Below, in pieces: positions 1,649 to 41,176 of a stretch of 64,000 bases of DNA. The notes beneath the pieces are model-generated. The model made no database searches. It was not told where the DNA came from and saw only the letters and a program-made list of their open reading frames with translations. The DNA lies in contig OZ242172.1 in the NCBI GenBank assembly GCA_965205645.1, positions 704,122 to 768,121 of the forward strand. Direction: 5' to 3'. Position numbers and translations under genes: made by a program. Position 1 is the stretch's first letter; each line of letters opens with the position of its first letter. This stretch comes from Bdellovibrionales bacterium. Its GTDB lineage: Bacteria > Bdellovibrionota > Bdellovibrionia > Bdellovibrionales > UBA1609.

Positions 1649-2299
1649 TTAATCAGATAGTTCAAATAAAATAGCATTGAATGTTTGTGTAGTATTATTA
1701 TGCACAGGAATTGTTTTTACTTCTTCTAAGGAGATTATTTTATTTTCAATAGCTATTTTTAATTTTTGTTTTATCCATTCAGGAGGATAAGCACCACTTG
1801 AAATTAAGTTCTGAAAAGTTTTTCTAATATTAGTTATATATAATCCATTTTTCTCTAGTTTTTCTGAAGTATGTAAATTTTCGTAATGCAAAATTAATTG
1901 ATCGTTATTAGCAGTACGCCGGAAATTATCCGGAACAGTAATATGAAGTTTTACTGGACAATCCATTTTAAAATTCATCAAATAAAGTGCAGTTTCATAG
2001 GAAAACGTTCCTACTTGTTCACCGTTACGATTTCTAGCCCAAAGTTGAAAGAGAAAAAAATCTTTTTTTGAATCTGTTTGAATAAAATTAAGTTGATATA
2101 TTCCTCTTTTTACTCGTGACCAGTTTTCTCTTTTTAAATGATAAGAATGATTTCTAGAATCGATACCTGATTCTATTGCCTGTTGGCTAGTGAATAGACC
2201 TGATTGATTCTGAGCAATTTTTAATAAAGGATGATTAACTCTCAAAAATAGTTCCTTATTTGATATAATTATGTATTTTATGTTATATACTATCAACAA
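1649..2299 (-). CDS. AbiEi-like (type IV TA antitoxin-type) DNA-binding domain protein, no AbiEii partner nearby
   Basis: The N-terminal pattern GLFTSQQAIESGIDSRNHSYHLKRENWSRVKRGIYQL resembles the AbiEi_4-type wHTH. Judged by eye only. Confidence 0.45.
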   Translation of the reverse strand: MLIVYNIKYIIISNKELFLRVNHPLLKIAQNQSGLFTSQQAIESGIDSRNHSYHLKRENWSRVKRGIYQLNFIQTDSKKDFFLFQLWARNRNGEQVGTFSYETALYLMNFKMDCPVKLHITVPDNFRRTANNDQLILHYENLHTSEKLEKNGLYITNIRKTFQNLISSGAYPPEWIKQKLKIAIENKIISLEEVKTIPVHNNTTQTFNAILFELSD

Positions 2300-2399
2300 T
2301 AATTATAAAATAACATAATTTTTATGTATTTTATATATTTTTTTCTTGTTTTTTGCAATATATACTGGTAATTTCTATCGAAAAAGAGGGATGTCTATA

Positions 2400-3464
2400 A
2401 TGATAAAAAGCATAAAAATTCAAAATTATAAGCTTTTTAAGTCCTTTGACCTTCAGAATATTCCTCAAATTCTGTTAGTTGGTGGAAAAAATAATAGTGG
2501 AAAAACTAGCATTTTAGAAGCTGCATTTATGTCTTTGGATTGTGTGAATCCCAATATGTTTATCAGGCATCTTGGATGGAGAGGCTTGAATACTATTTCT
2601 AATGATGTAGAATCTTTATTTGGCCCTGTATATCATAATTTTGATTTAAACCAGCCTATAATTATTCAATATACTCTTAATTCAGCACAAAAAAAATTAA
2701 TATACAAGTTTCTGCCATTTGTTACACAACCTATTATCACTCGTAACGGAAGCAGTATTGAAATTAACGAGAAAGTTAGCAGATTTGGGGGGATAGAAAT
2801 TTCTTATTGGCTAGGAAGAGAACAATATCATAAGGCTTTGTTAAAACATGAAATAAAGGGACTTAATTTATCATCTGTGAATCAAGTGCTGAAATACAAT
2901 GAAGGTGTAAAAGCTGTGTTTCTTGCTTCAACTTTTTCAGATCATCAATCGGAAAATGCTCGTAGATATGGCGAGTTGGATAGAATAAATAATACAGCTA
3001 ATATTTTAACTGCATTAAAAATTTTAGAATCCAAACTTAATTCTTTGAGTGTGATACCAATGGGCAATAGATCAATGATATACGGAGATACGGGTCTCGG
3101 AAAAAAAATTCCCTTGGCACTGATGGGTCAAGGGATTAACAAACTTGTATCTATTCTTTTAGCAATTTCCAATGCTAATAATGGAGTTGTTTTTATAGAT
3201 GAGCTTGAAAATGGATTCCATCATTCTGTTCTATCCGATATATGGAAAGTTATTTCACACCATGCTATGTTTAATAATACACAAGTGATAGCTACTACAC
3301 ATAGTAGGGAGCTTATTCTAGGAGCAGTAGCAGGTATACCTGATAGGATTAGAGATAAATTTAAATATATGAGGATAGAAAGAAAAGGAAATGCATTTAA
3401 AACAAAACATTATGATTTTAATACTTTGAGTGCAGCTTTAGATTCTGAGTTAGAAATTCGGTAG
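2400..3464 (+). CDS. ABC/SMC-type AAA ATPase (AAA_15/AAA_21-like, OLD/AriA-like ATPase module)
   Basis: Walker A GGKNNSGKTS, signature-like MGQGINKL, Walker B VVFIDELENGFH, H-loop ATTHS. Start chosen at the ATG at 2400, 10 nt after GAGGG. The longest ORF starts at 2346. Confidence 0.75.
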   Translation: MIKSIKIQNYKLFKSFDLQNIPQILLVGGKNNSGKTSILEAAFMSLDCVNPNMFIRHLGWRGLNTISNDVESLFGPVYHNFDLNQPIIIQYTLNSAQKKLIYKFLPFVTQPIITRNGSSIEINEKVSRFGGIEISYWLGREQYHKALLKHEIKGLNLSSVNQVLKYNEGVKAVFLASTFSDHQSENARRYGELDRINNTANILTALKILESKLNSLSVIPMGNRSMIYGDTGLGKKIPLALMGQGINKLVSILLAISNANNGVVFIDELENGFHHSVLSDIWKVISHHAMFNNTQVIATTHSRELILGAVAGIPDRIRDKFKYMRIERKGNAFKTKHYDFNTLSAALDSELEIR

Positions 3465-3469
3465 ATTTA

Positions 3470-4123
3470 GTGAATCAGAAAAACAGATTTAGCATAAAAA
3501 TTACAGAAACAAAACTCCTTCTTGTAGAAGGAAAGGATGAAGAGTTTTTTTTTAAAACTTTCTTAAAAAAGAAAGAGATTTGTAATATTCAAATTATTTC
3601 TAGTGGTGGAAAAGATAAATTTAAGAACAAATTTCCAGCAATTAAAAACACTCCTGGCTTTGATGAAGTAACTTCATTGGCTGTCATCCATGATGCAGAT
3701 ACAAACGCTCAAGGGGCATTTCAAAGTATTTGTTCTGTATTAAAGAACAATAGCGTGGATTATCCTAAACAAATTTCATCATTTACTACTTCAAATTCCC
3801 TTAGAGTTGGGGTTTTTATTATTCCGGATGGAGGAAATCAAGGAAAGTTAGAATCTTTATGCTTATCTACAGTTGAGTCGGACAGTATTATAGAATGTAT
3901 TGATTCTTTTATGAGTTGTATAAAGCAGCAGTCACAGCTTGATATAAATAGATATAAAGAACCAAAAGATATTCATAAAGCTAGATGTAGGGCATTTCTC
4001 TCAGCTATGGAAGAGGATATTCCATCTTTGGGATTAGCTGCTGAAAAGGGTTATTGGAATTTAGATTCAGATAAATTGAATCCTATGTTGAATTTTTTAC
4101 AGGAATTAAATCGCAAAGAGTAA
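3470..4123 (+). CDS. Small Toprim-like partner protein (DUF4435/DUF3226-like)
   Basis: GTG start 6 nt after the ATPase stop. Contains LLLVEGKDEEFF (conserved Glu) and AVIHDADTN (DxD), the two Toprim acidic motifs, plus IIPDGGNQGKLESL. Confidence 0.55.
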   Translation: MNQKNRFSIKITETKLLLVEGKDEEFFFKTFLKKKEICNIQIISSGGKDKFKNKFPAIKNTPGFDEVTSLAVIHDADTNAQGAFQSICSVLKNNSVDYPKQISSFTTSNSLRVGVFIIPDGGNQGKLESLCLSTVESDSIIECIDSFMSCIKQQSQLDINRYKEPKDIHKARCRAFLSAMEEDIPSLGLAAEKGYWNLDSDKLNPMLNFLQELNRKE

Positions 4124-4148: not shown

Positions 4149-5159
4149 ATGGAAATACCAAAGTTTTTATTATATGGTGAGACTGATCCAAAAACTCAAG
4201 AGAGAATACAGAAAACTCTTCCATGGAGAAGTTGGGATCAAGTCAGTGAAAAGGGAAAAGAAATTGCATTTCAGCAATTGATTAATGAAAATGTATTTCT
4301 ATACAAATCAGATCTTGTAGAAAATACGATAAAACGTTTGAATAATAAATTTTTAAGAAAACTATATGGAAAAAATTTACATTATTGTATGTCAGAATAT
4401 CTTGATGATTATCAAACAGCAGCAATGGGTGATTTTCGTGAAATTTTTACAACAGGAAAATCTGATGTGGTTTTTTATATGTTAAGTATATTTGCTGAAG
4501 GATTTATTAATCAGAATTATTTACGTCAAGCAAAAGAATCAAATAATAATGTAGATAGAAAAGAATATATAGAACAAGCTTTTATTCCATTTAATAAATT
4601 ACAGAACTGTTTGAATCATATTTTTGGACAATTTCATGTCAATCAACAGCTTACTTGGAGTGGTTTTATACCTCGTCAAGATGAAAGAATTTTAGATCAA
4701 ATCTATATTCCTACAATTAAATGTCTTTCCGATCCGAAATGGAGTTTAGTAAATAATGATTTAAGTAATATGTTTCAAGACTATAGAAATGGTAACTATC
4801 GGGACACTATTACTAAAGCTCATAATGTTTTACAAAGATTTCTTCAAATTTTTTTAAACAAGAGAAGTAAAAATGCTAAAGGAGAGTTAGGTAAGTTATT
4901 TTCGGAAGCTAAAAATAAAGGTGTTATATCAAATAATATTTTTATCATGAAAATCATTGAAGGTATTCAGAGCTTTGTATCTTCTGAAAGAGCAACTAAA
5001 AGCACAGCCAAACCTGCATTTAAAAATGTTACATCTGCAGATGCTTTGCTAGTAATGAATGCAGTTATGGTTTTTTTACAATACTGTTTAGAAGCAGATG
5101 CAACTGCATTGAAAGTATCTCCTGCGATTCATAAAGAGAGAGAACGGATGGCCTTTTGA
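4149..5159 (+). CDS. Hypothetical protein, third gene of the ATPase/Toprim cassette. Helical C-terminus with weak HEPN/Abi_C-like flavour.
   Basis: 336-aa ORF 25 nt downstream of the Toprim-like gene. YRDTITKAH fits Rx6H only loosely. Its stop codon (5157..5159) lies inside direct repeat B. Confidence 0.4.
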   Translation: MEIPKFLLYGETDPKTQERIQKTLPWRSWDQVSEKGKEIAFQQLINENVFLYKSDLVENTIKRLNNKFLRKLYGKNLHYCMSEYLDDYQTAAMGDFREIFTTGKSDVVFYMLSIFAEGFINQNYLRQAKESNNNVDRKEYIEQAFIPFNKLQNCLNHIFGQFHVNQQLTWSGFIPRQDERILDQIYIPTIKCLSDPKWSLVNNDLSNMFQDYRNGNYRDTITKAHNVLQRFLQIFLNKRSKNAKGELGKLFSEAKNKGVISNNIFIMKIIEGIQSFVSSERATKSTAKPAFKNVTSADALLVMNAVMVFLQYCLEADATALKVSPAIHKERERMAF

Positions 5160-5195
5160 TGCACGTGGTGAAGGCGCCGTTGGTGGTTTCTGATT
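5152..5195 (+). repeat. Direct repeat B (att-like copy of the ggt 3' end)
   Basis: CCTTTTGATGCACGTGGTGAAGGCGCCGTTGGTGGTTTCTGATT has 3 mismatches to copy A by hand alignment. Confidence 0.85.
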
Positions 5196-5264
5196 GTTTA
5201 TAGTTGTCTATTTAGTATTATTAAAAAATAGATTTGCGGTGGATGTATATTGTACAAACAGAAA

Positions 5265-6413
5265 TTACTTGATATTTTTCAGCCAGTCAGCAGCTGGCCA
5301 GATATGACATCCTGAGGTATGTAGCCTTTGTCGGCTACAAGATCTAACTAGCTGTATTTTTTTTACAGGATCAGGTATATCTTTAGTAAATAAATCAAAA
5401 TGAGATGTGAGTTTTTCATCTTTCCATTTAGTCTCTATCATTTGAAATGGCTTATTGTCTTTTGTGATTAAGAAATCTATTTCTTTTTTATCTTTATTTT
5501 TTAAGTAATAAAGTTGTCTTTTTTCTCCATAGCAGTCTTCTTTAAAGTGGTTATTTTTTAGTAAGGCGCAGGCAACAAGGTTTTCGAATCGCGCGCCTTT
5601 ATCTGAAACTTGAGCTATATCGTAAAAATAATACTTAGGCTGTTTGCGGATAGATTTTCTGATGTTTTTATAATAGGGTTGGATTTTAAAAATAAAATAA
5701 AATCCTTCTAATAGGTTCAGCATTTTTTTCACTGTTTTACCATCGCATTGTAGGATTTTTGATAAATTTTCGTATTGAATAGCGCTACCAACGGATGTTT
5801 TTAGTAACTCTAATAAGGTTTCTAATTGAGAAATTCTTTGGTATTTATCTAGCTCCAGCATATCTTCTTTTAGAATGGCTGAAGTGTGCGTGTTTGCCCA
5901 TCTTCTATAAAACTGCTTTGATCCTTTAAGATATGGTTCTGGAAATCCTCCAATTTCTAGCAGTCGGGTGAGTATTTGCTCTGGGTCTGCTTTTTTATGT
6001 ATTTGGCAAATTTCTTTTACGTCTAAAGGATGTAGGCGAAAAGGGAAAAAGCAGCCAGCTAAGGAATCTCCTGTTCTTTTATAGGCTTCAAGTCTGGCGC
6101 TACCTGTTACTATAATACCTTGTTTAAGTTCTGTTTTTTCATATAAAGCTTTTAGCCATTGTTTCCAGTTTTTTTTAATATGTAGTTCATCAAAAACTAG
6201 GTACTTGCAATAAGGATTCCATTCTTGTCGTTCTACCATTAGGCGGTCTTTGGCATCAAAGTAGTTAAAATAATCAAATTTTACTGAGGATGGGTGTAGG
6301 TGTTTTGAAAGCATTGTTTTTCCGGATTGTCGAGGACCGGTTATAATTAAAATCTTTTCTTTTAAATCTTTTTTTAAAAAGGGCTCTAGGTAGCGAGGTT
6401 TGTATTTGTTCAT
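5265..6413 (-). CDS. AAA ATPase of the AAA_14/DUF4143 type
   Basis: Walker A ITGPRQSGKTML and Walker B-like YLVFDELH. A C-terminal EIDFLI...IETKW module is typical of DUF4143 proteins. Paralog at 41867..43030. Confidence 0.75.
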   Translation of the reverse strand: MNKYKPRYLEPFLKKDLKEKILIITGPRQSGKTMLSKHLHPSSVKFDYFNYFDAKDRLMVERQEWNPYCKYLVFDELHIKKNWKQWLKALYEKTELKQGIIVTGSARLEAYKRTGDSLAGCFFPFRLHPLDVKEICQIHKKADPEQILTRLLEIGGFPEPYLKGSKQFYRRWANTHTSAILKEDMLELDKYQRISQLETLLELLKTSVGSAIQYENLSKILQCDGKTVKKMLNLLEGFYFIFKIQPYYKNIRKSIRKQPKYYFYDIAQVSDKGARFENLVACALLKNNHFKEDCYGEKRQLYYLKNKDKKEIDFLITKDNKPFQMIETKWKDEKLTSHFDLFTKDIPDPVKKIQLVRSCSRQRLHTSGCHIWPAADWLKNIK

Positions 6414-6605: not shown

Positions 6606-6713
6606 CAGAGCGGATTAGAGAATACTCTGGGAATAAGGTTTAGTTTGCATGTGGTGGCAATTTTAGAAGGGGCTTTTGATGCGCGTGGTGAGGGTGCAGT
6701 CAGTAGTTTATAA
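6606..6713 (+). pseudogene. ggt: Displaced, diverged 3' remnant of ggt without the repeat
   Basis: Reads ...LHVVAILEGAFDARGEGAVSSL* in frame. The live gene has ...GRVMAV[38-aa repeat insert]LEGAFDARGEGAVGGF*. There is no upstream ORF. Confidence 0.65.
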
Positions 6714-6715
6714 TT
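6672..6715 (+). repeat. Direct repeat C (att-like)
   Basis: The first 20 nt are identical to copy A. There are 7 mismatches in the remaining 24 by hand alignment. Confidence 0.8.
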
Positions 6716-6725
6716 GGATAAAGTG

Positions 6726-8880: not shown

Positions 8881-9159
8881 AACAATTCCTTTTACTTCAG
8901 AACATTTTTCTTAATAATATCAGATGTTTAAATCCTTAAACCCAAGTAGGTATTAAGTTAAGTGAGGATATTTATCATACGAGTTGTCTTTATGCAACTT
9001 TAAAAAAGGGGTGGTGTAAATATTTACATTGCCAGTGTAAAAAAACAGCTATTTGCCTGGAAGCTCACGTTACTTAAGTACACATGATTGGCAAAATTAT
9101 GACATGGGAGTAGCAGATTCATAGCGCAGTTATTGATATCGTCTATCATTAGTTGTGTA

Positions 9160-9717
9160 TTATTTCATGTAATATTCTTTATATGAATTCATTTGTTGGT
9201 CTAAATGATCGATTTGTTTTTGCAATTTTTGAGATACAAAGAGTGCATGTTCATAGATTGTCTCTTCTAATTTCATTTTTAATTGTGCAATATGAATCAG
9301 CTGATTCAGCTTTGCATTGTATTTTGTGTGTGCAATAAATATTATCTTCGACGTTTCGTTTAATAGCTTCGGATTTTCTGCATGTTCTGTCACATTCTCT
9401 TCCAGCTGCTGGTCATGTTTCTGTTTATCTAGATAAGGCACAATGAGTTCTGTATGAAGAAGATCATTTACTTGATCTATTACATTGGAATATTGTTGAT
9501 TAGTTTCATCTACTTTTTTTGATAATTGTTTTAAGTCTATACCAGCTTCTTCTAGTGGTGTTCTATCTATGCCTTTAAAAGAAAATCGGCATTTTGTCCA
9601 AGAATTGCTATATGCATTCTGTGAAAGTAACAATGCACAAAATATTCCTATTATAGCTATGCTCAAACTCTCACAGCTATAATAGATAGAATGATAACAG
9701 TTTTTCCTACTCTGCAT
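9160..9717 (-). CDS. Secreted coiled-coil-like protein, family member 2
   Basis: Its N-terminus MQSRKNCYHSIYYS... is identical to the 9874 ORF, followed by a signal peptide. Confidence 0.6.
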   Translation of the reverse strand: MQSRKNCYHSIYYSCESLSIAIIGIFCALLLSQNAYSNSWTKCRFSFKGIDRTPLEEAGIDLKQLSKKVDETNQQYSNVIDQVNDLLHTELIVPYLDKQKHDQQLEENVTEHAENPKLLNETSKIIFIAHTKYNAKLNQLIHIAQLKMKLEETIYEHALFVSQKLQKQIDHLDQQMNSYKEYYMK

Positions 9718-9835
9718 GACATTCTCTTTAACAATTAGAGATTCTTTTCATTCATTCAAGCGATCGTACATCACTGAATGGGTACTCTCTTATCATAAGT
9801 GGCATAGTTGTGCAAATTTAAAGAGAGATTAATGT
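9655..9835 (-). repeat. Conserved leader plus 5' CDS segment of the paralog cassette (copy 1)
   Basis: About 180 bp are nearly identical to 10303..10488. The segment includes TTATCATAAGTGGCATAGTTGTGCAAATTTAAAGAGAGATT. Confidence 0.8.
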
Positions 9836-9873
9836 TTTGACTATAATGTTCTTATATTTTTTTTGAAGTTGTT

Positions 9874-10365
9874 TCATCTGTTAAATAGAATCCATAAGTT
9901 ATTTTGATGGATGTGGTTTAAGGTGTTAATTAGTTGTCTTGTTTGTTCGTTGTCTTTTCGATTTGATCTTTTCAGTTCCTGTAGTATGCTTCTTTTCATA
10001 GTTTCTCCTTCAGCTATTATTTGATCCAGTTTGTGATCCCATGGATTTATTTGTTCAGCGTTACTAGGGTATGTAGATTTTAATTTCTGTAGCAGATATG
10101 TTATTTTGTTTCTAAGGACGATAGATCTATCGTGAATGTGTTCTATATTTATTGGCTTTTGTGGTGTGTGAGATGGTTGGATTGCACTCTCTTTTGTTTC
10201 ATCGGTAGGCGCTGGATTGTCAAATGATTGTTGGCATTTATTTTCAGAAGTACCGTAAGTAGGGTGCGCAAATAACAATGCACAAAATATTCCTATTATA
10301 GTCGTTATGCTGAAAATCCTATAGCTATAATAGATAGAATGATAACAGTTTTTCCTACTCTGCAT
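9874..10365 (-). CDS. Secreted protein, family member 3
   Basis: STYPSNAEQINPWDHKLDQIIAEGETMKRSILQELKR...NNLWILFNR parallels the 10543 ORF. Confidence 0.6.
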   Translation of the reverse strand: MQSRKNCYHSIYYSYRIFSITTIIGIFCALLFAHPTYGTSENKCQQSFDNPAPTDETKESAIQPSHTPQKPINIEHIHDRSIVLRNKITYLLQKLKSTYPSNAEQINPWDHKLDQIIAEGETMKRSILQELKRSNRKDNEQTRQLINTLNHIHQNNLWILFNR

Positions 10366-10488
10366 GATGTTCTCTTTAACAATTAGAGATTCTTTTCACT
10401 CATTCATTCAAGCAATCGTGCATCGCTGAATGGGTACTCTCTTATCATAAGTAGCATAGTTGTGCAAATTTAAAGAGAGATTCATGTT
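10303..10488 (-). repeat. Conserved leader plus 5' CDS segment of the paralog cassette (copy 2)
   Basis: See 9655..9835. Degenerate versions of the TTATCATA..TGCAA core are also upstream of the 8551 and 10543 ORFs. Confidence 0.8.
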
Positions 10489-10542
10489 TTTTCTATGACT
10501 CTGAAGAATAAATCAATCTTCTGTTTTTCTTTTTTTGTATAG

Positions 10543-11055
10543 TTACTCAGATGGATTTTTCTTTGATAAGTTAATTTGTTGATCCTGGTATCCTTCCATG
10601 GATACTTTTAACCTGTTAGATAGAATCCATAAGTTATTTTGGTTGATATAATTAAAAATGTAATTTAATTTTACTGTTTGTTGGTTGTTATTTACATTTA
10701 TTCTTTTCAATTCTTGTATTATTGTGGTCATCTGTGTTTTTCCTTCAGCTATTATCTGATGAAGCTTATGATCTAATTGCTCTATTTTTTTAACGTCATT
10801 AGGATGTGTAGATTGTAATTTTTGTAGCAGATGTTCCGCTTCTTCCTTAAGAGCGGCAGATCGGATACTATATTGTTCTATGTTTATTGGCTGTTGCGCC
10901 GTGTGTTCAGTTTGGGCTGCACCTTTTTTTGTTTCATTACTGATAGGTGCTGAATTATTAAATGGTTGCTTGCATTTGTCTCCGGTAAAACCACCAGAAT
11001 CACCGTAAGCAGGATACGCAAATAGCAATACACAAAATATCCATATTATAGTCAT
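10543..11055 (-). CDS. Secreted protein, family member 4
   Basis: Signal peptide MTIIWIFCVLLFAYPAYG. Contains STHPNDVKKIEQLDHKLHQIIAEGKTQMTTIIQELKR...NNLWILSNR. Confidence 0.6.
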   Translation of the reverse strand: MTIIWIFCVLLFAYPAYGDSGGFTGDKCKQPFNNSAPISNETKKGAAQTEHTAQQPINIEQYSIRSAALKEEAEHLLQKLQSTHPNDVKKIEQLDHKLHQIIAEGKTQMTTIIQELKRINVNNNQQTVKLNYIFNYINQNNLWILSNRLKVSMEGYQDQQINLSKKNPSE

Positions 11056-11352: not shown

Positions 11353-12183
11353 TCAATTCTTGGTTAATTTCTTGCCTTTGTCACTGGAAATCCGTTGCAA
11401 GTCAGCACGGCAAAGGCCACAGGCGATTAACTCTTCATCCAATAGCTTTTGCGCATAACTAAGCGCTGCCGGTACCTCTCGCTTAGCAGGACTAGCTACT
11501 AATAAATCTGGTCTTTTTAGTGCGGTTAATAAGACAGATATAAAGTAATGAAATTCTTTAATGTTTTGATGGTGACCGGAAAATAATATTTTTGGTATAC
11601 AATGTCCCTTAATTTCTCTGGGACGGGTCCACTGAGGACATTCTAATAAGCCATGATCTTCAAAGCTTTCATTAGTAGCGGAATATTCATTTCCTAAAGC
11701 TCCTTTAATGAACCGGCAAAGAGAATCTAATATCAATAAAGCAGCTGGTTCCCCTCCAGTGAGTACATAATCTCCCACAGAAATTTCTTCATCCACGAGT
11801 TCTTCAATCACTCGTTGATCGACTCCACCATAGCGTCCGCAAATGATAATACGTTCTTTTTGTTCCTGCTCCGCCCACTGTCTTGCCATTTCATAATTCC
11901 ATTGCTTCCCTTTTGGACTTAAATAATACACTGTTCTTTTTTTTGGTGCTGATTCAATTGCTTGTTTCAAAGGTTCATACTGAAGTACCATTCCATCTCC
12001 ACCACCAAAGGGACTATCATCCACACTCTGATGAATGTTTGTTGCAAAATTTCTAAGTGGAATTAAATTTACTTTTAATAAATTGCGCTGAATAGATCGG
12101 CCTAATATCCCAACATTCAAAGGAGAGTTAAAAAATTCTGGAAAAAGAGTAACGATATGAAATTTTAACATCACACAAACCAT
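11353..12183 (-). CDS. trmD: tRNA (guanine37-N1)-methyltransferase
   Basis: MLKFHIVTLFPEFF, GGGDGMVL, RYGGVDQRV, VLTGGEPAALLILDS. The true start may be the MLKF Met at 12171. Confidence 0.93.
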   Translation of the reverse strand: MVCVMLKFHIVTLFPEFFNSPLNVGILGRSIQRNLLKVNLIPLRNFATNIHQSVDDSPFGGGDGMVLQYEPLKQAIESAPKKRTVYYLSPKGKQWNYEMARQWAEQEQKERIIICGRYGGVDQRVIEELVDEEISVGDYVLTGGEPAALLILDSLCRFIKGALGNEYSATNESFEDHGLLECPQWTRPREIKGHCIPKILFSGHHQNIKEFHYFISVLLTALKRPDLLVASPAKREVPAALSYAQKLLDEELIACGLCRADLQRISSDKGKKLTKN

Positions 12184-12198
12184 ATTCCGTTAGTTGAT

Positions 12199-13647
12199 TT
12201 ATTTTTGCGGATTGGGTTTTTTTATTATCTGCTGGTATTGTTTCAGTGCTTTTTTTACTTTGCCGCTCAGAAATACTACACCAATTAAATTAGGGAAAGC
12301 CATGCTGAGAATCATTAAGTCACTAAACTCCATTGCATTTAAAGAGGTGGCAATAGATCCCAGAAAAACAACGATTAGTAATAGTATTTTGTAAATAACC
12401 GAGTACTTGTCACCAAAAATGAAAACAAAACATCGTTCTCCATAATAGGACCAGGAAATAATTGTAGAAAAAGCAAATAGGATGACTGCTACGCTTAATA
12501 AGTAGGGAGACCAACTCATTGTTTCCCCCATTGCTTTAAATGTTAGCGCTGCACCTTTTTGATGTTCCACTAAATCCATATAATTCGGGTTTTCATAGGC
12601 CCCTGTGATAACGATCACTAAAGCTGTCATCGTGCAAATACAAACCGTGTCAATAAAAGGTTCCAGTAGAGCGACGATTCCCTCTTCCACTGGATGGTTA
12701 ACTTTCGCTGCTGAGTGGGCAATCGCTGCAGAGCCCAAGCCCGCTTCATTAGAAAAAACCGCTCTTTGTATACCTACTATCATGACTCCCATGATTCCAC
12801 CAAGAGCGCTAGCCGGTTGAAAGGCTCCTTGTATAATGATCCAAAAAGCATGAGGAATATGATTCCAATGAACAACTAAAACAATCATCGCCATAGTGAT
12901 ATATAGAGTGCACATGAGTGGCACAATACGGCTGGCTACAAAAGCTACACTCTTTAAGCCTTTCAGAATAACAATGCCTACTAGTGCCGCCATGATCAAA
13001 CCATAGGCCCAGCCGTATGGGGAAAGCGCCGGCCATGTATCTGTAATAGCATGCATAGATTGATTGATCTGAAAGGCTGTGCCTCCACCAAAAGATCCAC
13101 CGATACATAGAAAGCAAAATATAATAGCAAGTGTTCGACCTAAACGTTGATGACCCATTTCTGCGAAACCCTTTTGTAGGTATTCCATTGGGCCACCCAT
13201 TAGTTGACCGTTAGGTCTTTTTTTACGGTACATCACGCCTAAAGTGCATTCAGTAAATTTAGTGCTCATTCCCAGTAGTCCCACGACGATCATCCAAAAA
13301 GTTGCCCCTGGGCCACCAACAGAAATTGCAATCGCTACACCTGCAATATTACCTAACCCTACTGTCGCAGATAGTGCTGTGGTTAGGGCTTTAAAATGAC
13401 TAATTTCTCCTGATTTTTTGTCTGCCTCGCCTGGCTTCATTGCTTGTACCACTAGACGAATAGCTTCTTTAAACATTCGCAAGTTTACAAAGCGCATTTT
13501 TAAAGTAAAAAATATGCCTGCACTGAATAAGATAAATATCACTAAAGGGAACTTAACTCCGTCTACAAAAAACAATAAATCCATGAAAAACAATTGGCTG
13601 ATCCAAGAATTGACTATCTTGAAAATAGAATTTATGAAATCAATCAT
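12199..13647 (-). CDS. Alanine/glycine:cation symporter (AGCS family)
   Basis: About 11 TM segments, GGPGATFWM and FSNEAGLGSA motifs. Confidence 0.88.
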   Translation of the reverse strand: MIDFINSIFKIVNSWISQLFFMDLLFFVDGVKFPLVIFILFSAGIFFTLKMRFVNLRMFKEAIRLVVQAMKPGEADKKSGEISHFKALTTALSATVGLGNIAGVAIAISVGGPGATFWMIVVGLLGMSTKFTECTLGVMYRKKRPNGQLMGGPMEYLQKGFAEMGHQRLGRTLAIIFCFLCIGGSFGGGTAFQINQSMHAITDTWPALSPYGWAYGLIMAALVGIVILKGLKSVAFVASRIVPLMCTLYITMAMIVLVVHWNHIPHAFWIIIQGAFQPASALGGIMGVMIVGIQRAVFSNEAGLGSAAIAHSAAKVNHPVEEGIVALLEPFIDTVCICTMTALVIVITGAYENPNYMDLVEHQKGAALTFKAMGETMSWSPYLLSVAVILFAFSTIISWSYYGERCFVFIFGDKYSVIYKILLLIVVFLGSIATSLNAMEFSDLMILSMAFPNLIGVVFLSGKVKKALKQYQQIIKKPNPQK

Positions 13648-15601: not shown

Positions 15602-15994
15602 TTATCGCACAATAAAGTGATAAATACGAGTCACTTGAATATCGTGCTTTAATGGTTTGAATTGTATTCTATTTAATACAGAGAGAATACATTTTAAAAT
15701 ATTTTTTTCTTTTAGATCTGTATGGACCACTCGCGATTTTGTTTTTCCTTGGCGAGACACACTTAGCTCAATCAGCATATCACCATTATCATTTGATTGG
15801 TTACTGTTCATACATTTGTTAATCAAGATCTTTTTTTTTCTGTGGATCACTTGATCCATATAAATTTGTTGCTGCCTAATTAGTGAATCATGAGATCTTA
15901 CGTTGGCACTGAATGAATATAATTGGCAAGGTAGTGATAAGAAAGATAATAATAAAATTTTTATTAGGAAATATTTTGAATAAAAAACAGTCAC
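15602..15994 (-). CDS. Small secreted protein with a TonB-C/AgmX-PglI-like C-terminal domain
   Basis: Signal peptide. GDMLIELSVSRQGKTKSRVVHTDLKEKNILKCILSVLNRIQF resembles that fold. By eye only. Confidence 0.35.
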   Translation of the reverse strand: MTVFYSKYFLIKILLLSFLSLPCQLYSFSANVRSHDSLIRQQQIYMDQVIHRKKKILINKCMNSNQSNDNGDMLIELSVSRQGKTKSRVVHTDLKEKNILKCILSVLNRIQFKPLKHDIQVTRIYHFIVR

Positions 15995-16449
15995 TGGTTA
16001 GTGCTATTCTCATTGGTATTTGGTACATTCGTTTTATTCATATTATCTGGAGCTGTGTTTTTTATTTTACTTGTTTCTACGTCTGGTGTGTTCTGGTTAG
16101 ATGGTTTTGTGTCTTCCGCTGTATTACTTTTTACTTTAGCATCAGCAGGAGCTGAATTTGAAGAGGTGCTGTCTGTCGTCTCAGGCGCATTAGTATATTG
16201 ATCTATCACACTGGTGTTTTTATCTGAACTTAAAGCAGCTAGATAAATGGAAGTAAAGGCAAATATAATAGCCGTCCATTTAGTCACACCGACTAAAAAT
16301 TGATTCGCGCCAGAACTGCCAAATAAACTCTTTGTTCCTCCACCTCCAATAATACCAAAAGCTCCGCCTCCTTTTGGATCTTGAAGTAAAATAAAAATTA
16401 TCATAATAAAAGAGACAATAATATGCACAATGGAAAGAAAGGTAAACAT
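15991..16449 (-). CDS. secG: Preprotein translocase subunit SecG with a low-complexity C-terminal tail
   Basis: ILLQDPKGGGAFGIIGGGGTKSLFGSSGANQFL is the SecG signature. Confidence 0.9.
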   Translation of the reverse strand: MFTFLSIVHIIVSFIMIIFILLQDPKGGGAFGIIGGGGTKSLFGSSGANQFLVGVTKWTAIIFAFTSIYLAALSSDKNTSVIDQYTNAPETTDSTSSNSAPADAKVKSNTAEDTKPSNQNTPDVETSKIKNTAPDNMNKTNVPNTNENSTNQ

Positions 16450-16483
16450 TATCCTTAGTTAAAGAAACTTTTACCCCAAAAGT

Positions 16484-16990
16484 CAACCCCCCCCTCAAAA
16501 GGGGTAACTTCGCCGCGATTCCTTGCACGCATGTCACAATTTTGCTTATAAAGTTCGTCAAGTAAGTAAGTGTCCGCCCCCCAAAGGGGGTAACTTCGCC
16601 GCGATTCCTTGCACGCATGTCACAATTTTGCTTATAAAGTTCGTCAAGTAAGTAAGTGTCCGCCCCCCAAAGGGGGTAACTTCGCCGCGATTCCTTGCAC
16701 GCATGTCACAATTTTGCTTATAAAGTTCGTCAAGTAAGTAAGTGTCCGCCCCCAAAGGGGGTAACTTCGCCGCGATTCCTTGCACGCATGTCACAATTTT
16801 TCACATAAAGTTTGCCAAGTAAGTAAGTGTCCGCCCCCCAAAGGGGGTAACTTCGCCGCGATTCCTTGCACGCATGTCACAATTTTTCACATAAAGTTTG
16901 CCAAGTAAGTAAGTGTCCGCCCCCCAAAGGGGGTAACTTCGCCGCGATTCTGCTGTACGCATGTCACTCCTTGTAAATCATGTTTATCAG
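16484..16990 (-). repeat. Tandem array of 6 units of the hairpin repeat, period 86 bp (one unit is 85 bp), co-oriented with secG
   Basis: The TGTCCGCC landmark falls at 16571, 16657, 16743, 16828 and 16914. Monomer: GTCCGCCCCCCAAAGGGGGTAACTTCGCCGCGATTCCTTGCACGCATGTCACAATTTTGCTTATAAAGTTCGTCAAGTAAGTAAGT. The last two units switch to a TTTTTCACATAAAGTTTGCCAAG linker. Confidence 0.92.
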
Positions 16991-17151
16991 TTGTCTGCGG
17001 CGACCTCGCCATGCTCTGCGGCAAAATGCATATCTGAGCTTTTGAGTGAATTTTTTAAATGGGAAAACAAATATTTACACTGTTGCAAATTATGCTTGTA
17101 AATATCCGATTGTATGTTGAGTTTTGGAATAGCTTATTATTAAATAAGGCA

Positions 17152-18150
17152 ATGCCTAAGACATCTGATTTAAATAAAGTAAAAAAATCTGCACTGCCTA
17201 AAATAGCCTTCAGTCGTCTGTCTGTTCAAGACGTAGCATCAGTATATCATATGCCAATGGTAACTTTAGTGAGTAAAGCACATGCGGTGCACTGTCGCTA
17301 CTTTGATCCACAACAAATACAAACTAGCCAACTGCTGTCCATTAAAACAGGAGGTTGTTCAGAAAATTGTGCCTACTGTCCTCAATCCGCTCATTATAAT
17401 ACAGGAGTTAATAAAGAAAAATTGATGGACTTATCTTCTGTACTGTCAGCTGCTCGCTCGGCTAAAAAACAAGGGGCGACTCGTTTTTGTATGGGAGCCG
17501 CCTGGAGAGAAGTGCGTGACGGACCTCTGTTTGATCGTGTGTTGGACATGGTGTCAGAAGTAAAAGATCTCGAATTGGAAGTGTGCTGCACCTTAGGTAT
17601 GTTATCAGAAGAACAAGCCGTGCGACTCAAAAAAGCTGGCTTGTACGCTTATAATCATAATATCGATACCTCAAAGAATTTTTATCCTAAAATTATTACA
17701 ACGCGTAAATATGAAGATCGCCTGCGAACCATTCAATCCGTTAGAAAAGCAGGAATAACAGTTTGTACAGGTGGTATTGTTGGTATGGGAGAAACAAAAC
17801 AGGATCGAATTGAATTTTTGCATCAGCTGGCCATTTTGCAGCCGTCACCGGAAAGCGTAACTATTAATAAACTTATTCCTATTCCAGGCACGCCTCTGGC
17901 ACGTCAAAAGCCACTTCCTCATTTAGAGATCATACGAGTGATTGCAACTGCCCGGATTCTCATGCCTCAATCTATGGTGCGTTTAAGTGCTGGCCGAACA
18001 GGTATGAGTGAATCCGATCAGTTTTTATGTTTTTTTGCCGGTGCTAATTCCATTTTTATTGGAGAAAAACTTTTAACCTCTGCTAACCCAGGTCTTTCTA
18101 AAGACACTGAAATGCTTCAGCGATTAGGGATGTCCGTGCGCACTTGTTAA
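17152..18150 (+). CDS. bioB: Biotin synthase
   Basis: Radical-SAM motif CSENCAYCPQS, plus MGAAWR and YNHNIDTS. The longest ORF starts at 17059, but the Met at 17152 gives a normal N-terminus. Confidence 0.92.
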   Translation: MPKTSDLNKVKKSALPKIAFSRLSVQDVASVYHMPMVTLVSKAHAVHCRYFDPQQIQTSQLLSIKTGGCSENCAYCPQSAHYNTGVNKEKLMDLSSVLSAARSAKKQGATRFCMGAAWREVRDGPLFDRVLDMVSEVKDLELEVCCTLGMLSEEQAVRLKKAGLYAYNHNIDTSKNFYPKIITTRKYEDRLRTIQSVRKAGITVCTGGIVGMGETKQDRIEFLHQLAILQPSPESVTINKLIPIPGTPLARQKPLPHLEIIRVIATARILMPQSMVRLSAGRTGMSESDQFLCFFAGANSIFIGEKLLTSANPGLSKDTEMLQRLGMSVRTC

Positions 18151-18297: not shown

Positions 18298-19284
18298 ATG
18301 AAAGTGTTAGTAACAGGAGCAACCGGTTTCTTAGGTGGATGGCTGTGTAAAGCTTTGGTGAAAGAAGGGCACTCCGTGCACGCTTTAGTACGCCCTTCCA
18401 GTAATACTAGTGAATTGCAAAAACTGTCTGTTCATTTACATAAAGGGGATGTGACAGATCTTCATTCTTTCATGTCTGCCGCCAGTGGTGGGGTAGAAGT
18501 GTTATTTCATTTAGCAGGGTTGGTGGCTTATGCAGAAAGGCTGCGTTCAGCAATGCAGGCAGTAAATGTAGGAGGGACAGCTAATGCTATTGAAGTGTGT
18601 CGCCAACGAAATATTCGTTTAGTTTACATGAGTTCCGTTGCTGCTGTCGGAGCTAGTCTTACCTCGAAAGTGCTAAATGAAGAATCTCCTTATGAAATGG
18701 ACAAATTTCGTTTCGGGTATTTTGATACAAAAAGGAAAGCAGAAATATTAGTACGACAAGCTTGCCAAAAAGGTGATCTATTTGCAGTTATTTTAAATCC
18801 TTCTAATGTTTATGGTGCAGGGGATATGCGCAAAGCTAGTCGACGGACACATATCTGGGTCGCAACAGGTAGTCTTCCATTTTATACTTCCGGTGGACTC
18901 AGTGTGGTGAACGTGGAATCTGTTATTGAAACCACGATACAAGCTGTGCAAAAAGGCCGGTCTGGAGAAAGATATATTCTCAGTGGTGAAAATATTAGTA
19001 TTCAAAAATTGTTTCAATTGGTAGCGAAAGCTGCCGGTAGTCACCCTCCCTCTATTCGTATGAGTAATTTTGTTTTAGATTCACTCGTGCTGGTTGGCCA
19101 AGGATTAAAAGCGATGGGGTTCCGCTTTTTTTTAAATGATAAAGATATGCGATTAGGTCGATTTTATCACTGGTTTGATCATAGTAAAGCTAGTGCAGAA
19201 CTGGATTTTTCTCCGCAGCCAGCTGCTTACGCTATTTCTAATTCCATTGAGTGGTGGAAAAAACACTGCCAATCAAAAACATAA
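18298..19284 (+). CDS. NAD-dependent epimerase/dehydratase family (extended SDR)
   Basis: MKVLVTGATGFLGGWL and YFDTKRKAE (YxxxK). Confidence 0.8.
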   Translation: MKVLVTGATGFLGGWLCKALVKEGHSVHALVRPSSNTSELQKLSVHLHKGDVTDLHSFMSAASGGVEVLFHLAGLVAYAERLRSAMQAVNVGGTANAIEVCRQRNIRLVYMSSVAAVGASLTSKVLNEESPYEMDKFRFGYFDTKRKAEILVRQACQKGDLFAVILNPSNVYGAGDMRKASRRTHIWVATGSLPFYTSGGLSVVNVESVIETTIQAVQKGRSGERYILSGENISIQKLFQLVAKAAGSHPPSIRMSNFVLDSLVLVGQGLKAMGFRFFLNDKDMRLGRFYHWFDHSKASAELDFSPQPAAYAISNSIEWWKKHCQSKT

Positions 19285-19373
19285 AGTAGGAAGGTAGTAA
19301 CATGAGTGCAGGGACTCGCGGCGAAAGTAACCCCCTATGGGGGCGCGGCGCTGTATCCCCCCCGATTTGGGGG
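19285..19373 (+). repeat. Partial forward repeat unit spanning the argS start codon
   Basis: GTAACATGAGTGCAGGGACTCGCGGCGAAAGTAACCCCCTATGGGGGCGCGGCGCTGTATCCCCCCCGATTTGGGGG compares with the canonical GTGACATGGGAGCAGCGGACTCGCGGCGAAA... Confidence 0.8.
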
Positions 19374-21143
19374 TTGGATCAGTTTACCAGTATTGTATGT
19401 CGCGATTTATCTCGTACCATTCATAAATTATTTCAATTGGATCTGGCAGAAAATCAAATAGCTCAGTACTTTAGTGCTCCTCCACAGGAGGACTGGGGAC
19501 ATTGGGCTTTGCCTTGTTTCTTTCTTGCAAACAAACAAAAAAAAATAAACCCCGCTGCAGCTTCTGCACAAATTGCAAACGCTTATCAAGTTCCCTCTAC
19601 TATATTTGAGCGAGTTGTCGCAAAAGGTCCTTATGTAAATTTTTTTTTTCAACCAGCTTTTTTATGTCAAAAGCTACTGAATCCCATCCGTTCCGGAGAG
19701 TTATTTCAATTGCCACCTAAAAAAAATAATCCATGGTTGGTGGAATACTCACAACCTAATACACATAAGGAATTACATATCGGCCACTTAAGAAATTTAT
19801 GTTTCGGTTTAGCTTTAACCACTTTATTAAAAAAACGAGGCTTTTCAGTCATTAGCTGTACTTTTCCTGGGGATACGGGCACACATACTGCGAAATGCTT
19901 ATGGTATTTGAAATACCATAATAAAGAAAAACCTCCTGATGAAACACATCCTCCTTTTGTGCGCAAAGGGGCATGGTTAGGATATATTTATACAAAAGCT
20001 TGCTTAAAATTTGAGGAAGCTGTCAAAGAGGCGGACTCTGCTCCGATCGTTCAAAAACAAGTGACGGATATTTTGAAACAACTACAGTCCAAACAAGGTG
20101 ATATTTATGAGCTATGGAAAGAAACACGCGAATGGAGCTGTGATTTAATGAAACAAGTGTACGAGTGGGTAGGAGTGCAATTTGACAAATGGTATTGGGA
20201 ATCAGAAGTGGATGAACCTTCCGTTCAGTTGATTAAAGATCTTTATCAAAAAAAACAACTCACTAAATCTGAATCAGCTATTGGTAAAGACTTAGGTTCA
20301 AAATTGGGATTTTGTTTGCTATTAAAATCAGACGGTAATGGATTATACGCTACTAAAGATATTTATCTAGCTAAAAAAAAGATGGAAGATTATCACCCGG
20401 AAAAAAATATTTATATCGTGGACCAAAGACAAGAGCGACACTTCCAACAAGTGTTCGCTGTATTAGATCATATTGGTTGTTCAGAAATTGCCAGCCGATC
20501 TAAACATTTAAAATATAACTTTGTACAACTACCTTCTGGTCCTATGAGCTCTAGAGACGGAAATATCGTTCCTATTATGGACATAATCCAAAAAATGACA
20601 GCTTATGTGAAAAAACAGTTTTTACAAAAATATGAGAATAACTGGGATAAAGATCAACAAGAACAAGTAGCTCGTCAAGTTGCTGAAGGAGCTATTAAAT
20701 ATGGAATGAATGAGCAGGATTTAAACAAAAAAATTATTTTTAATATGCAGGAATGGCTCAATTGGGATGGTAAATCAGGGCCGTATATTCAGTATGCATA
20801 CGCCAGATCTTGCTCTCTTTTAAAGAAATTCAATGCGGATAATCAGACGATTCAATACAAAGAACCAACTGCGTTTTCACCGGAAGAACAGTCAATTATT
20901 GTGCACCTTTCTCGTTTCTCTCTCATAATGGAAAATAGCGCCTGGCAAATGAAAACCGCACCCGTTTGCCATTATTTATTCGATCTGGCTAAACAGTTTT
21001 CCCGCTTCTATCAAAATTGCCCCATCGGTAGTTTAAAAGATCAAGAGAAGAAAAATTTTCGCCTGTTTCTCGTGCAGGTCGTTCAATCAGCCCTGAAAGA
21101 AGGACTATCCTACCTGTCCATTCCCACCCCTGAAAAAATGTAA
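19302..21143 (+). CDS. argS: Arginine--tRNA ligase. The first ~24 codons are repeat-derived.
   Basis: HIGHLRN class-I motif, PMSSRDGNIV, and a DALR-like C-terminus. The ATG at 19302 is the ATG carried by the repeat. An alternative in-frame TTG lies at 19374. Confidence 0.9.
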   Translation: MSAGTRGESNPLWGRGAVSPPIWGLDQFTSIVCRDLSRTIHKLFQLDLAENQIAQYFSAPPQEDWGHWALPCFFLANKQKKINPAAASAQIANAYQVPSTIFERVVAKGPYVNFFFQPAFLCQKLLNPIRSGELFQLPPKKNNPWLVEYSQPNTHKELHIGHLRNLCFGLALTTLLKKRGFSVISCTFPGDTGTHTAKCLWYLKYHNKEKPPDETHPPFVRKGAWLGYIYTKACLKFEEAVKEADSAPIVQKQVTDILKQLQSKQGDIYELWKETREWSCDLMKQVYEWVGVQFDKWYWESEVDEPSVQLIKDLYQKKQLTKSESAIGKDLGSKLGFCLLLKSDGNGLYATKDIYLAKKKMEDYHPEKNIYIVDQRQERHFQQVFAVLDHIGCSEIASRSKHLKYNFVQLPSGPMSSRDGNIVPIMDIIQKMTAYVKKQFLQKYENNWDKDQQEQVARQVAEGAIKYGMNEQDLNKKIIFNMQEWLNWDGKSGPYIQYAYARSCSLLKKFNADNQTIQYKEPTAFSPEEQSIIVHLSRFSLIMENSAWQMKTAPVCHYLFDLAKQFSRFYQNCPIGSLKDQEKKNFRLFLVQVVQSALKEGLSYLSIPTPEKM

Positions 21144-21475
21144 CCCCCCTCAAAGGGGGAGTGATTTCGCCGCGATTCCTTGCATCCATGTCACTATTTT
21201 ATACATTATGTTCGCCAAATAACCCCCTCTGGGGGCGCCGCCCGCGAGTCGCGGGGGATACTTTCGCCGCGGCTGTATTTACGTTATTGTCACTATCTTG
21301 CACATTATGTTCGCCAAGTAAGTGTCCATGGCGACTCGTTTGAGCTTTTAAACAAGGTTTTTAAACTTAAGAGATTCACAAAATAAGCGCCAGAGCGAAC
21401 ATCTGCGGCGCAGTATTCATGGCGATCCGCCACTGGTAACCTGCTACTGCATTTACATTATTGTCACGATTTTAA
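21143..21475 (-). repeat. Cluster of about 3 inverted-orientation repeat units downstream of argS
   Basis: CCCCCCTCAAAGGGGGAGTGATTTCGCCGCGATTCCTTGCATCCATGTCACTATTTTATACATTATGTT..., then CCCCCTCTGGGGG and CCCGCGAGTCGCGGG hairpins, then a degenerate unit ending ATTATTGTCACGATTTT. Confidence 0.85.
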
Positions 21476-33656: not shown

Positions 33657-34040
33657 GATTTCAGCTCGTCATTATGTTTAAGTGATAGTATTTACTGATA
33701 TACATTCACTTTGTAAAGGTAGTTATTTCAGTATTAACGAAAATAAGCTATTACTCTTGATCGTATCTTTTATTGTTGAGGTATTTTACTGTCAATATAT
33801 ATTAAATATTTTCTAAAAATAGCTATGTAATTTTTACAATATAGATCCTAACTGCGGGAACAGCTGTCATTATTACGATAGGTGTTGGATCCTCAGGGGA
33901 TGTAAAGCCAAAAATCTTAATGGAATACAAGATCTTGATATGGAGTGCACAGTCGAAAGTCTTACTTGTTGTGATAATACTCTAATTTTTATTTATCTTT
34001 TATTTTTTTTGGTATGTAATAAATTAAGACAATAAAAGCA

Positions 34041-38152: not shown

Positions 38153-38174
38153 ATGTTCAGTCAAAAATTTAGAA

Positions 38175-41176
<3,002 letters not shown>

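Follow-up and report, generated by a model that had tools for sequence, protein, structure and literature searches.

The question raised by this locus is whether a tandem array of hairpin-bearing repeats, lying between the divergently oriented genes secG and bioB of an uncultured Bdellovibrionales bacterium (GenBank assembly GCA_965205645.1, contig OZ242172.1), is a control element of the gene that it adjoins or the local outgrowth of a repeat found throughout the genome. A first-pass annotation of the 64,000-nt stretch of DNA that was analyzed (positions 704,122 to 768,121 of the contig; here referred to as the window) had described the array as a dispersed element growing at the control region of an essential gene, in or directly in front of the secG 5′ untranslated region (UTR). 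The growth of a dispersed element is borne out by our results, as the family has 21 nhmmer matches in the window and forms other tandems at 55.3 kb and 57.2 kb. The tie to the control region of an essential gene looks incidental, since variable arrays of the same family also occur between rpsT and murJ, between murJ and ybeY, upstream of argS, and inside ybeY. The array likely grew in place, by tandem expansion of a modular, lineage-specific, and non-autonomous repeat that is selfish or near-neutral; a dedicated role in the control of secG is improbable.

The existence of the array was confirmed with Tandem Repeats Finder (TRF), which reported a repeat at 16491-16967 with a period of 86, 5.5 copies, 96% matches, and a score of 833, by far the strongest tandem repeat of the window; six consecutive minus-strand nhmmer matches span 16472-17009. 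By these two methods the array extends over 16487-17009 on the minus strand and consists of five near-identical units and one divergent unit. It lies in a 702-nt spacer between secG (15991-16449, minus strand, 152 aa, with PF03840 recognized in the orthologue of a second strain) and bioB (17152-18150, plus strand, 332 aa from the ATG at 17152, in an open reading frame [ORF] open from 17059). The p orientation, defined as the strand that reads as sense where element copies lie inside genes, is on the minus strand in the array, so that the co-orientation with secG that had been reported is correct. The landmark TGTCCGCC recurs at 16571, 16657, 16743, 16828, and 16914, reproducing both the positions and the 86-bp period originally given. 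Six head-to-tail units can be placed within 16484-16999, with starts at 16484, 16571, 16657, 16743, 16828, and 16914. The first three of these nucleotides (16484-16486) belong to a conserved TTGACT and not to the element, which moves the real start of the array from 16484 to 16487, and the first hairpin begins 38 nt from the secG ATG.

All six units lie on the minus strand, and their alignment gives a grouping different from the one first proposed (1 to 4 and 5 to 6): units 1 to 3 share one linker or arm (A), units 4 and 5 share another (B), and unit 6 stands apart as a different subtype, with 65 to 77% identity to any other unit. Unit 1 (16484-16570 in the phase of the earlier reading, the first 3 nt coming from the flanking TTGACT) has arm A and a variant hairpin (C8-TC-A4-G4) at 16487-16504. 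Units 2 (16571-16656, hairpin 16577-16590) and 3 (16657-16742, hairpin 16663-16676) are 86 nt long, carry arm A, and are 100% identical to each other. Unit 4 (16743-16827, hairpin 16749-16761) is 85 nt long, with one C fewer in its hairpin, and is 99% identical to unit 5 (16828-16913, 86 nt, hairpin 16834-16847); both carry arm B. Unit 6 (16914-16993, hairpin 16920-16933) has the variable segment CTGCTGTACGCATG, the arm TCCTTGTAAATCATGTTTATCAG, and a variant core. The 27-nt core CGCCGCGATTCCTTGCACGCATGTCAC is exact in units 1 to 5, and eight matches with up to 3 mismatches were found in the window versus a chance expectation of 0.00. The linker had been measured too short, as the AT-rich stretch between GTCAC and TGTCC in array units is 33 nt rather than 24 nt. 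Unit junctions read CTTAC-TTAC-TTG. Element-like sequence extends to about 17009-17030, and the stretch at 16994-17030 (GTCTGCGGCGACCTCGCC..., not assigned to a strand) is probably the degenerate tail of a further copy, judging from an nhmmer envelope reaching 17009 and from reading by eye; it is kept in the second strain as the right-hand flank of the array.

The supposed linker aligns with the conserved arm of solitary family copies and is therefore part of the element rather than a spacer. Copies of the family, identified by repeat finding and with an nhmmer profile, lie on both strands of the window. The element is a set of modules of about 85 to 105 nt in total: in p orientation, an AT-rich arm (TTGGTAAACATAATTTGCAAAGTC) is followed by GTGACA, a variable segment of 8 to 12 nt, GGAATCGCGGCG, and then one to three GC triloop hairpins, and the end is a GGACAC tail. 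Each hairpin module comprises a short linker (..T-N-A-C, as in AAAGTAAC, CTGTAAC, and AAACCACT) and a GC stem of 5 to 8 bp with a 3-nt loop, and the modules recur with sub-periods of 21 to 28 nt. Further tandems of the family are located at 403-560 (75-nt spacing), 55280-55465 (period 93), and 57206-57440 (period 103), and all clusters are head-to-tail direct repeats except at 1298-1445, where two copies on opposite strands overlap. A single frame in p orientation is free of stops in most copies, those between genes and array units 1 to 5 among them, and encodes a hydrophilic, Gly/Pro-rich peptide, GKHNLQSRDM.A.NRGAVTPLGG.

Rfam gave no match to the family at gathering thresholds and none on the array at E ≤ 1. 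A profile of the peptide matched only two among 5.8 billion proteins, both of them small ORFs called over copies from this same lineage, and a scan of metagenome contigs with an arm pattern returned four matches, all of them chance occurrences in unrelated conserved coding sequence without hairpins. Based on these two results, the family looks narrowly lineage specific. The degenerate pattern TGACAN{8,12}GGANYCGCGGCG produced more than 120 single chance matches in genome contigs from unrelated high-GC genomes, none fitting the family profile. The repeat family is unusual and apparently undescribed.

Related genomes allowed the behavior of the family to be followed over several evolutionary distances. 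A second strain is represented by loci L121, recovered by BioB search, and L129, recovered from the same sample by peptide-profile search, with flanks 93 to 98% identical to the window; a relative from a sponge metagenome (L122 and L130) has a BioB that is 89% identical; a more distant relative (L131) has 80 to 86% DNA identity; and two further relatives (L124 and L132) have BioB proteins that are 75 to 78% identical. In the four element-bearing genomes sampled, the window included, element density is 3 to 6 per 10 kb, and it is zero in L124 and L132 (21 kb each). These last two keep the divergent secG-bioB pair, with element-free spacers of about 132 to 142 nt, compared with 702 nt in the window, which supports the claim that the array separates the two genes.

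The second strain differs from the window at all five shared element sites. At secG-bioB, it has five units of 88 bp instead of six of 86 bp, and four of them carry a CCCTC/GAGGG hairpin together with another linker. Between an epimerase gene and argS, it has two copies where the window has one (19248-19385, plus strand); between rpsT and murJ, one copy replaces three (55270-55625, plus strand, two of which form a 93-bp tandem); and between murJ and ybeY, four units replace the two of a second array with a period of 103 (57206-57440, plus strand). Inside ybeY, the element-derived insertion is 47 aa long and of a different variable-segment subtype, compared with 41 aa in the window, both being in frame. 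In the secG-bioB array, adjacent units are 99 to 100% identical within a strain and 82 to 92% identical between strains, below the identity of the flanks, and this combination of homogeneity within and divergence between strains points to recent re-amplification and/or gene conversion. The stepwise amplification proposed in the first-pass annotation is consistent with these data and also appears recent, as nearly identical blocks (99 to 100%) lie beside older units and both copy number and unit type depend on the strain. Further, array periods over all loci are 69, 75, 86, 88, 93, 102, and 103 nt, and unit boundaries depend on the array; such variation in boundaries and lengths favors slippage or recombination over a process that excises units at fixed ends.

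The secG-proximal side of the spacer bears on whether the array is transcribed with secG. A −35-like TTGACT (16481-16486, minus strand) abuts the array and is followed after 17 nt by a −10-like TTTAAC (16458-16463, minus strand) that lies 8 nt before the secG ATG; TTGACT is conserved in the second strain and in L124 and L132, TTTAAC has the same geometry in L121, L124, and L132, and both are putative promoter elements. The arrangement TTGACT-N17/18-TTTAAC/G-N6-8-ATG before secG is common to the window (16450-16486, minus strand), L121, L124 (9859-9897), and L132 (about 9869-9907). In an alignment of the window, the second strain, and L124, homology runs from the ATG to GTTGACT and ends exactly where the array starts, and this end of the homology to element-free relatives makes it likely that the secG promoter lies between the array and secG. 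The TTGACT-TTTAAC block would probably be that promoter, with the array upstream of its −35 box and outside the 5′ UTR, and the placement of the array within the secG 5′ UTR thus seems unlikely. The first-pass annotation had reasoned that the array would be a neutral expansion if transcription of both genes started between it and the genes and the array itself were silent; for the secG promoter, conservation suggests that this is likely the case. L132 has no Shine-Dalgarno-like sequence in the short gap before the secG ATG, and the secG mRNA may be leaderless or near-leaderless in this lineage. A consensus promoter scan found no promoter-like site in the array, and the only terminator-like site there is in unit 1, where the hairpin is by chance followed by TTGACTTTT. 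Two promoter types were considered within the element and rejected: a sigma-70 promoter in each unit (TTGCAC-N18-TATAAA fits 8 of 12 positions only and sits in the variable segment) and a sigma-54 or extracytoplasmic function (ECF) promoter in the arm, whose spacing, examined by eye, does not fit.

On the other side, about 160 nt between the array and bioB are conserved in the second strain and contain a perfect 9-bp inverted repeat, ATATTTACA-N17-TGTAAATAT, at 17071-17079 and 17097-17105, which puts it upstream of bioB by about 50 nt. These 160 nt probably hold the promoter or operator of bioB, and the inverted repeat is a candidate operator (possibly of the BirA type), with half-sites arranged unlike those of the E. 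coli bioO operator. The spacer inside the inverted repeat resembles the element arm (TTGCAAATTATG). In the sponge-metagenome relative, secG is not adjacent to bioB, and the region upstream of its bioB (L122, 1130-1330) contains twice a different sequence of about 70 nt (..AAAACGCATGTTTGAACTTTTGAGTAAAGTTTTCAAACATAGAGACCAAG..) that is partly shared with 17020-17060 of the window.

Copies of the family also reside within genes. The ORF at 3-1469 (plus strand), running in from the left edge of the window, encodes gamma-glutamyltranspeptidase (GGT; Pfam E = 3e-79) and contains two head-to-tail copies at 75-nt spacing in frame (390-573, plus strand), an in-frame copy ending at the catalytic/autoprocessing Thr (705-821, plus strand; TTHFS), and two overlapping copies, one per strand, that form its C-terminal tail (1298-1445); all of them remain open in frame. 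In ybeY (57445-58041, plus strand, 198 aa), an insertion of about 41 aa (57691-57813, plus strand) comprises arm, core, and three hairpin modules, and it splits two blocks that adjoin in solved YbeY structures while the catalytic H-x3-H-x5-H motif is intact. AlphaFold2 gave a predicted local distance difference test score (pLDDT) above 90 in most 10-residue blocks of the YbeY core and below 50 for residues 82-128, the insert, a result that fits a floppy surface loop in the predicted model. Across relatives (L129, 10363-10977, and L131, 10001-10867, were compared with the window), the element-derived part of this loop measures 0 residues in distant homologues, about 18 in P0125, 41 in the window, 47 in the second strain, and about 150 in L131 (a YbeY of 288 aa), where two arrays, both in frame, make it up; their periods are 102 and 69 nt and their unit boundaries differ, the 69-nt unit being without the arm.

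The copies in GGT and YbeY are in p orientation and in the same frame, yielding the peptide given above, and because one p-orientation frame is stop-free, real proteins too retain in-frame copies in their loops and at their termini. Array periods within ORFs (21, 24, 69, and 102 nt, with the 75-nt spacing) are multiples of 3 in five of five cases, compared with one of nine for the intergenic periods (86, 88, 93, 103, 28, 26, 28, 26, and 28 nt; Fisher's P of about 0.003 by our own arithmetic). Such a contrast argues for selection that keeps the host genes in frame.

The conserved structure of the element is the small hairpin. Stems of at least 5 bp were present in 25 of 27 distinct post-core tails, in 19 different stem sequences (for example, CCCCC/GGGGG, CTCCC/GGGAG, CCCTC/GAGGG, CCGCCG/CGGCGG, and CCCGCG/CGCGGG). 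We aligned loop-centered segments with artificial anchors, as MAFFT-aligned tails put the hairpins out of register and RNAalifold then found no structure. In the loop-centered alignment, 92.7% of cells are paired, and six of six pairs have changed on both sides; with the register chosen by centering on the best stem, the covariation score is 0.58 versus 0.21 in shuffles (0 of 500 reaching it), and every slid register is worse. The hairpin is thus retained rather than its sequence. On either strand, the folds of whole units do not improve on those of dinucleotide shuffles (z = −0.7 to −1.0), and single copies contain no inverted repeats of 8 nt or more, so structure is confined to the small hairpins. 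A second stem around the variable segment was considered and set aside as not conserved between subtypes. Stems read on the p strand contain a G.T pair in 13 cases versus an A.C pair in 5, which leans toward a strand-specific role without being significant and was not accepted as proof of a role as RNA; several of these stems also have a fully paired alternative register.

A plausible history of the array would begin with a founder copy that landed directly upstream of the secG −35 box. The strain comparison shows that the array has since gained and lost units, which may have happened through replication slippage or unequal homologous recombination between neighbors, possibly promoted by the hairpins, with gene conversion from other copies presumably contributing as well. 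The effect on secG and bioB is probably incidental: the divergent promoters would have been pushed about 0.5 kb apart, and a GC hairpin would have taken the place of the native AT-rich sequence on the upstream side of the secG −35 box.

Several observations weigh against this explanation or limit it. With regard to mobility, no transposase or REP-associated tyrosine transposase (RAYT) gene was found among the 30 of 52 window ORFs of at least 110 aa that were scanned against Pfam (the others were named from orthologue calls or left unscanned), no terminal inverted repeats were found in single copies, and comparisons of the argS, secG, and rpsT-murJ sites gave no clear target-site duplication, the 5′ boundaries being ambiguous; dispersal could therefore be purely recombinational. 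With regard to neutrality, the array is kept in both strains exactly against the secG −35 box and in the orientation of secG, making a regulatory effect possible, and the maintenance of hairpins by compensatory change implies some structural selection, whether for propagation or for a host function. The secG −35/−10-like motif scored below the threshold of the consensus scan, and its assignment as a promoter rests on conservation. Finally, individual copy numbers could carry assembly error: the second-strain contigs come from long-read assembly at low coverage (“2x” and “3x” in their names), and in L131 many genes are fragmented. Many housekeeping genes of L131 (holA, an ABC ATPase gene, murJ, and an amidohydrolase gene) are each called as two parts, and a 1-nt homopolymer difference lies near the start of its ybeY; either the assembly is prone to frameshifts or the genome is decaying.

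The alternative with the most direct bearing on our question, a functional cis-regulatory module for secG and/or bioB that acts as a tunable spacer or insulator, as a set of protein-binding sites, or as a multi-hairpin leader in the manner of a contingency locus, appears unlikely to us. The position and orientation of the array against the −35-like box, its retention at secG-bioB in both strains, its strain-dependent copy number, and the compensatory changes in its hairpins could all be read in this way, as could a weak TTGCAC-N18-TATAAA motif that faces bioB in units 1 to 3. Most members of the family, however, lack that motif, which is part of the variable segment. In addition, the consensus scan found no promoter in the array, units diverge between strains more than the flanks do, and equally variable family arrays occur at unrelated loci and inside ORFs, whereas two relatives run the same gene pair with a spacer of 132 to 142 nt and no element. 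We give about the same low credence to an active, self-propagating expandable module whose stop-free frame and flexible, Gly/Pro-rich peptide are themselves selected, which lengthens loops of essential proteins (from 0 to about 150 residues in YbeY) and whose promoter-proximal arrays serve as regulators tunable by copy number; it would amount to a means of rapidly varying protein loops and expression in a bacterium that has a small genome and may be host-associated. A cluster of small-RNA (sRNA) genes, one per unit, is very improbable. Tandem sRNA gene clusters exist in other bacteria, and each unit does have a stable GC hairpin, but the units are just 86 nt long and have no promoter-like site, their hairpins lack a following T-run apart from a chance one at unit 1, Rfam similarity is lacking, whole-unit structure is no better than in shuffles, and the same sequence lies in reading frame inside GGT and YbeY. 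An assembly artefact in the form of a collapsed or expanded repeat is, if anything, less credible still: tandem repeats are prone to mis-assembly and the contigs of the second strain have a coverage of 2 to 3x by name, but an array occupies this site in two independent assemblies, with units that differ between them and yet are consistent within each, the array of about 0.5 kb has ordered variants (A-A-A-B-B-other) that are not a collapse product, and four other loci as well as two further genomes show like behavior.

A somewhat better case can be made, as a rival for the mode of spread only, for elements of the REP (repetitive extragenic palindromic) or REPIN (REP doublet) type, or derived from IS200/IS605, that are moved as single-stranded DNA by a RAYT or another Y1 (HUH) transposase encoded elsewhere in the 1.56-Mb genome, with arrays arising by adjacent insertion; on balance we still think it unlikely. 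A semi-conserved tag, ..T-N-A-C (GTAAC, GTTAC, ATCAC, GTGAC), stands before the small GC hairpins, the unit junctions quoted above would suit such a mechanism, and the G.T over A.C excess on the p strand is a weak strand bias. Adjacent copies can also differ in subtype, as at 403/478 in the window and at 12152/12245 in L121 (pair at 12152-12358), which fits insertion beside a resident copy better than duplication and hints that new copies may preferentially land beside resident ones. On the other hand, the stems adjoin no GTAG or CGTC tag and measure 5 to 8 bp versus the 20- to 40-bp palindromes of REPs (PMC3733652), the arrays are direct, unlike the inverted doublets of bacterial interspersed mosaic elements (BIMEs) and REPINs, unit boundaries and lengths differ among arrays, the 30 of 52 window ORFs scanned against Pfam include no Y1 transposase, and the 13:5 bias is not significant and involves several stems with an alternative, fully paired register. 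Two further candidates were rejected outright. A CRISPR array does not fit, as whole 86-nt units repeat with the “linker” included and units 2 and 3 are 100% identical, and for a replication origin or iterons the GC skew is positive across the whole window and only two relaxed DnaA-box matches exist (in units 4 and 5). A selfish or near-neutral repeat that expanded locally in tandem remains our preferred explanation of the array.

The remaining copies in the window illustrate other relations between the element and its neighbors. A degenerate copy with arm and core and without a hairpin (9057-9134, plus strand) lies between rplS and a small ORF, and two head-to-tail copies downstream of argS (21127-21340, minus strand) run antisense to their flanking genes; at this site, at least four copies are present in the sponge-metagenome relative. 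The argS (19302) and murJ (55530) ORFs have their start ATG inside an element copy (GTGACATG / GTAACATG). At argS, where the ATG is within the element context GTAACATG, a Shine-Dalgarno-like AGGAAGG is located in the arm 7 nt upstream, and this layout suggests that the element may provide both the codon for initiation and some 24 aa of new N-terminal sequence. The family also misleads gene callers, in that ORFs begin inside elements and arrays give rise to calls of small, spurious ORFs.

Other features of the window are recorded here as separate observations. A second repeat family of 51 nt (GGGCTTTTGATGCGCGTGGTGAAGGCGCAGTTGGTGGTTTCTGATT...) occurs at 1426-1476, 5150-5200, and 6670-6720, with copies 80 to 92% identical that lie at gene ends and provide the last codons (..FDARGEGAVGGF*) of two plus-strand ORFs. 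A defence-like cluster at 1649-4123 encodes an AbiEi-type regulator (1649-2299, minus strand), an AAA_15/AAA_21 ATPase (2346-3464), and a DUF3226/OLD-like TOPRIM protein (3470-4123), and two AAA_14/DUF4143 ATPases are encoded at 5265-6413 and 41867-43030. Three small paralogous ORFs at 9160-11055 are without a Pfam match, as are two tandemly duplicated gene blocks of about 1.5 kb at 34039-35443 and 35577-36982 (within 33972-36982) that are 72 to 99% identical. The 23S and 5S rRNA genes are at 38174-41394 (23S at 38174-41177), and no 16S rRNA gene was found in the 1.2 kb upstream or, by Rfam, in the window; the 16S and 23S genes thus appear unlinked, as in many reduced genomes. A large leucine-rich repeat (LRR) protein is encoded at 31821-33656 (minus strand; LRR_8, E = 1.6e-85), and an ankyrin-repeat protein is encoded in the sponge-metagenome relative (L130, 12977-13570). 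Such eukaryote-like repeat proteins hint at a host-associated lifestyle like that of Rickettsia.

The secG-bioB array is, in our interpretation, the local symptom of a genome-wide repeat and not a special control device. Between strains with about 97% identity, the repeat turns over at a very high rate; it also shows nested reiteration at the levels of module, element, and array, and its in-frame arrays are limited to periods that are multiples of 3. It therefore offers a natural system for studying how such repeats spread, expand, and are tolerated by proteins, and, as the events appear recent, long reads from populations could address these questions.

Comparison with known repeat systems places the family among several types without making it a member of any. 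Fungal mitochondrial mobile GC clusters and double-hairpin elements are GC hairpins scattered in an AT-rich genome that are polymorphic among strains and occasionally in frame within coding sequence (as in yeast var1); they are organellar and differ in sequence. BOX elements have the architecture boxA-boxB(n)-boxC, in which an internal module is present in variable tandem number, and our family resembles them, in architecture only, in being modular and non-autonomous with internal tandem modules (one to three hairpins here). In Streptococcus pneumoniae, BOX elements are found clustered together with further repeats close to regulatory regions (PMC10969869), another point of likeness. The family differs from them in host lineage, in the reiteration of whole elements, and in its prominent in-frame residence in housekeeping genes, and no relatedness in sequence is expected. 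Transposable elements of the miniature inverted-repeat type (MITEs) such as Coxiella QMITE1/2, Correia, and ERIC are likewise small, non-coding, and dispersed, sometimes with in-frame fusions or promoter or sRNA activity (PMC10969869), but MITEs have terminal inverted repeats, target-site duplications, and an origin from insertion sequences (ISs), while no terminal inverted repeats, no clear duplication, and no parent IS were found for this family. REPs are imperfect palindromes of 20 to 40 bp that bear a tag, GTAG or CGTC; as a rule they form inverted doublets and are linked to RAYTs (PMC3733652). Like REPs, BIMEs, and REPINs, the family consists of short GC-rich stem-loops in many copies that are sometimes clustered, occasionally intragenic, and variable among strains (PMC3733652); unlike them, its stems of 5 to 8 bp sit inside an element that measures about 90 nt and has a long arm without palindromic character, the arrangement is direct, and no RAYT gene is among the 30 scanned ORFs.

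In its behavior, the family comes closest to the Rickettsia palindromic elements (RPEs), to which we liken it by description and not by sequence. RPEs are repeats of about 100 to 150 bp, compared with units of 75 to 105 nt here, that encode a recurring peptide, leave the host protein intact, and have no known transposase (PMC10969869, PMC3733652). Both are small dispersed repeats of a low-GC genome that occur between genes and in frame within unrelated housekeeping ORFs, and in this family too a recurring peptide is encoded and the host genes for GGT and YbeY are intact. The present element differs in that it is not palindromic as a whole, only the 5- to 8-bp GC triloop stems being structured and no CGTC tag lying beside them, and in that it is modular, with reiterated hairpin modules and routine head-to-tail arrays, including in-frame arrays within an ORF. 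RPE-like selfish DNA in protein-coding genes has been described mainly in Rickettsia, and the repeat behind the secG-bioB array would represent an independent family of this kind.

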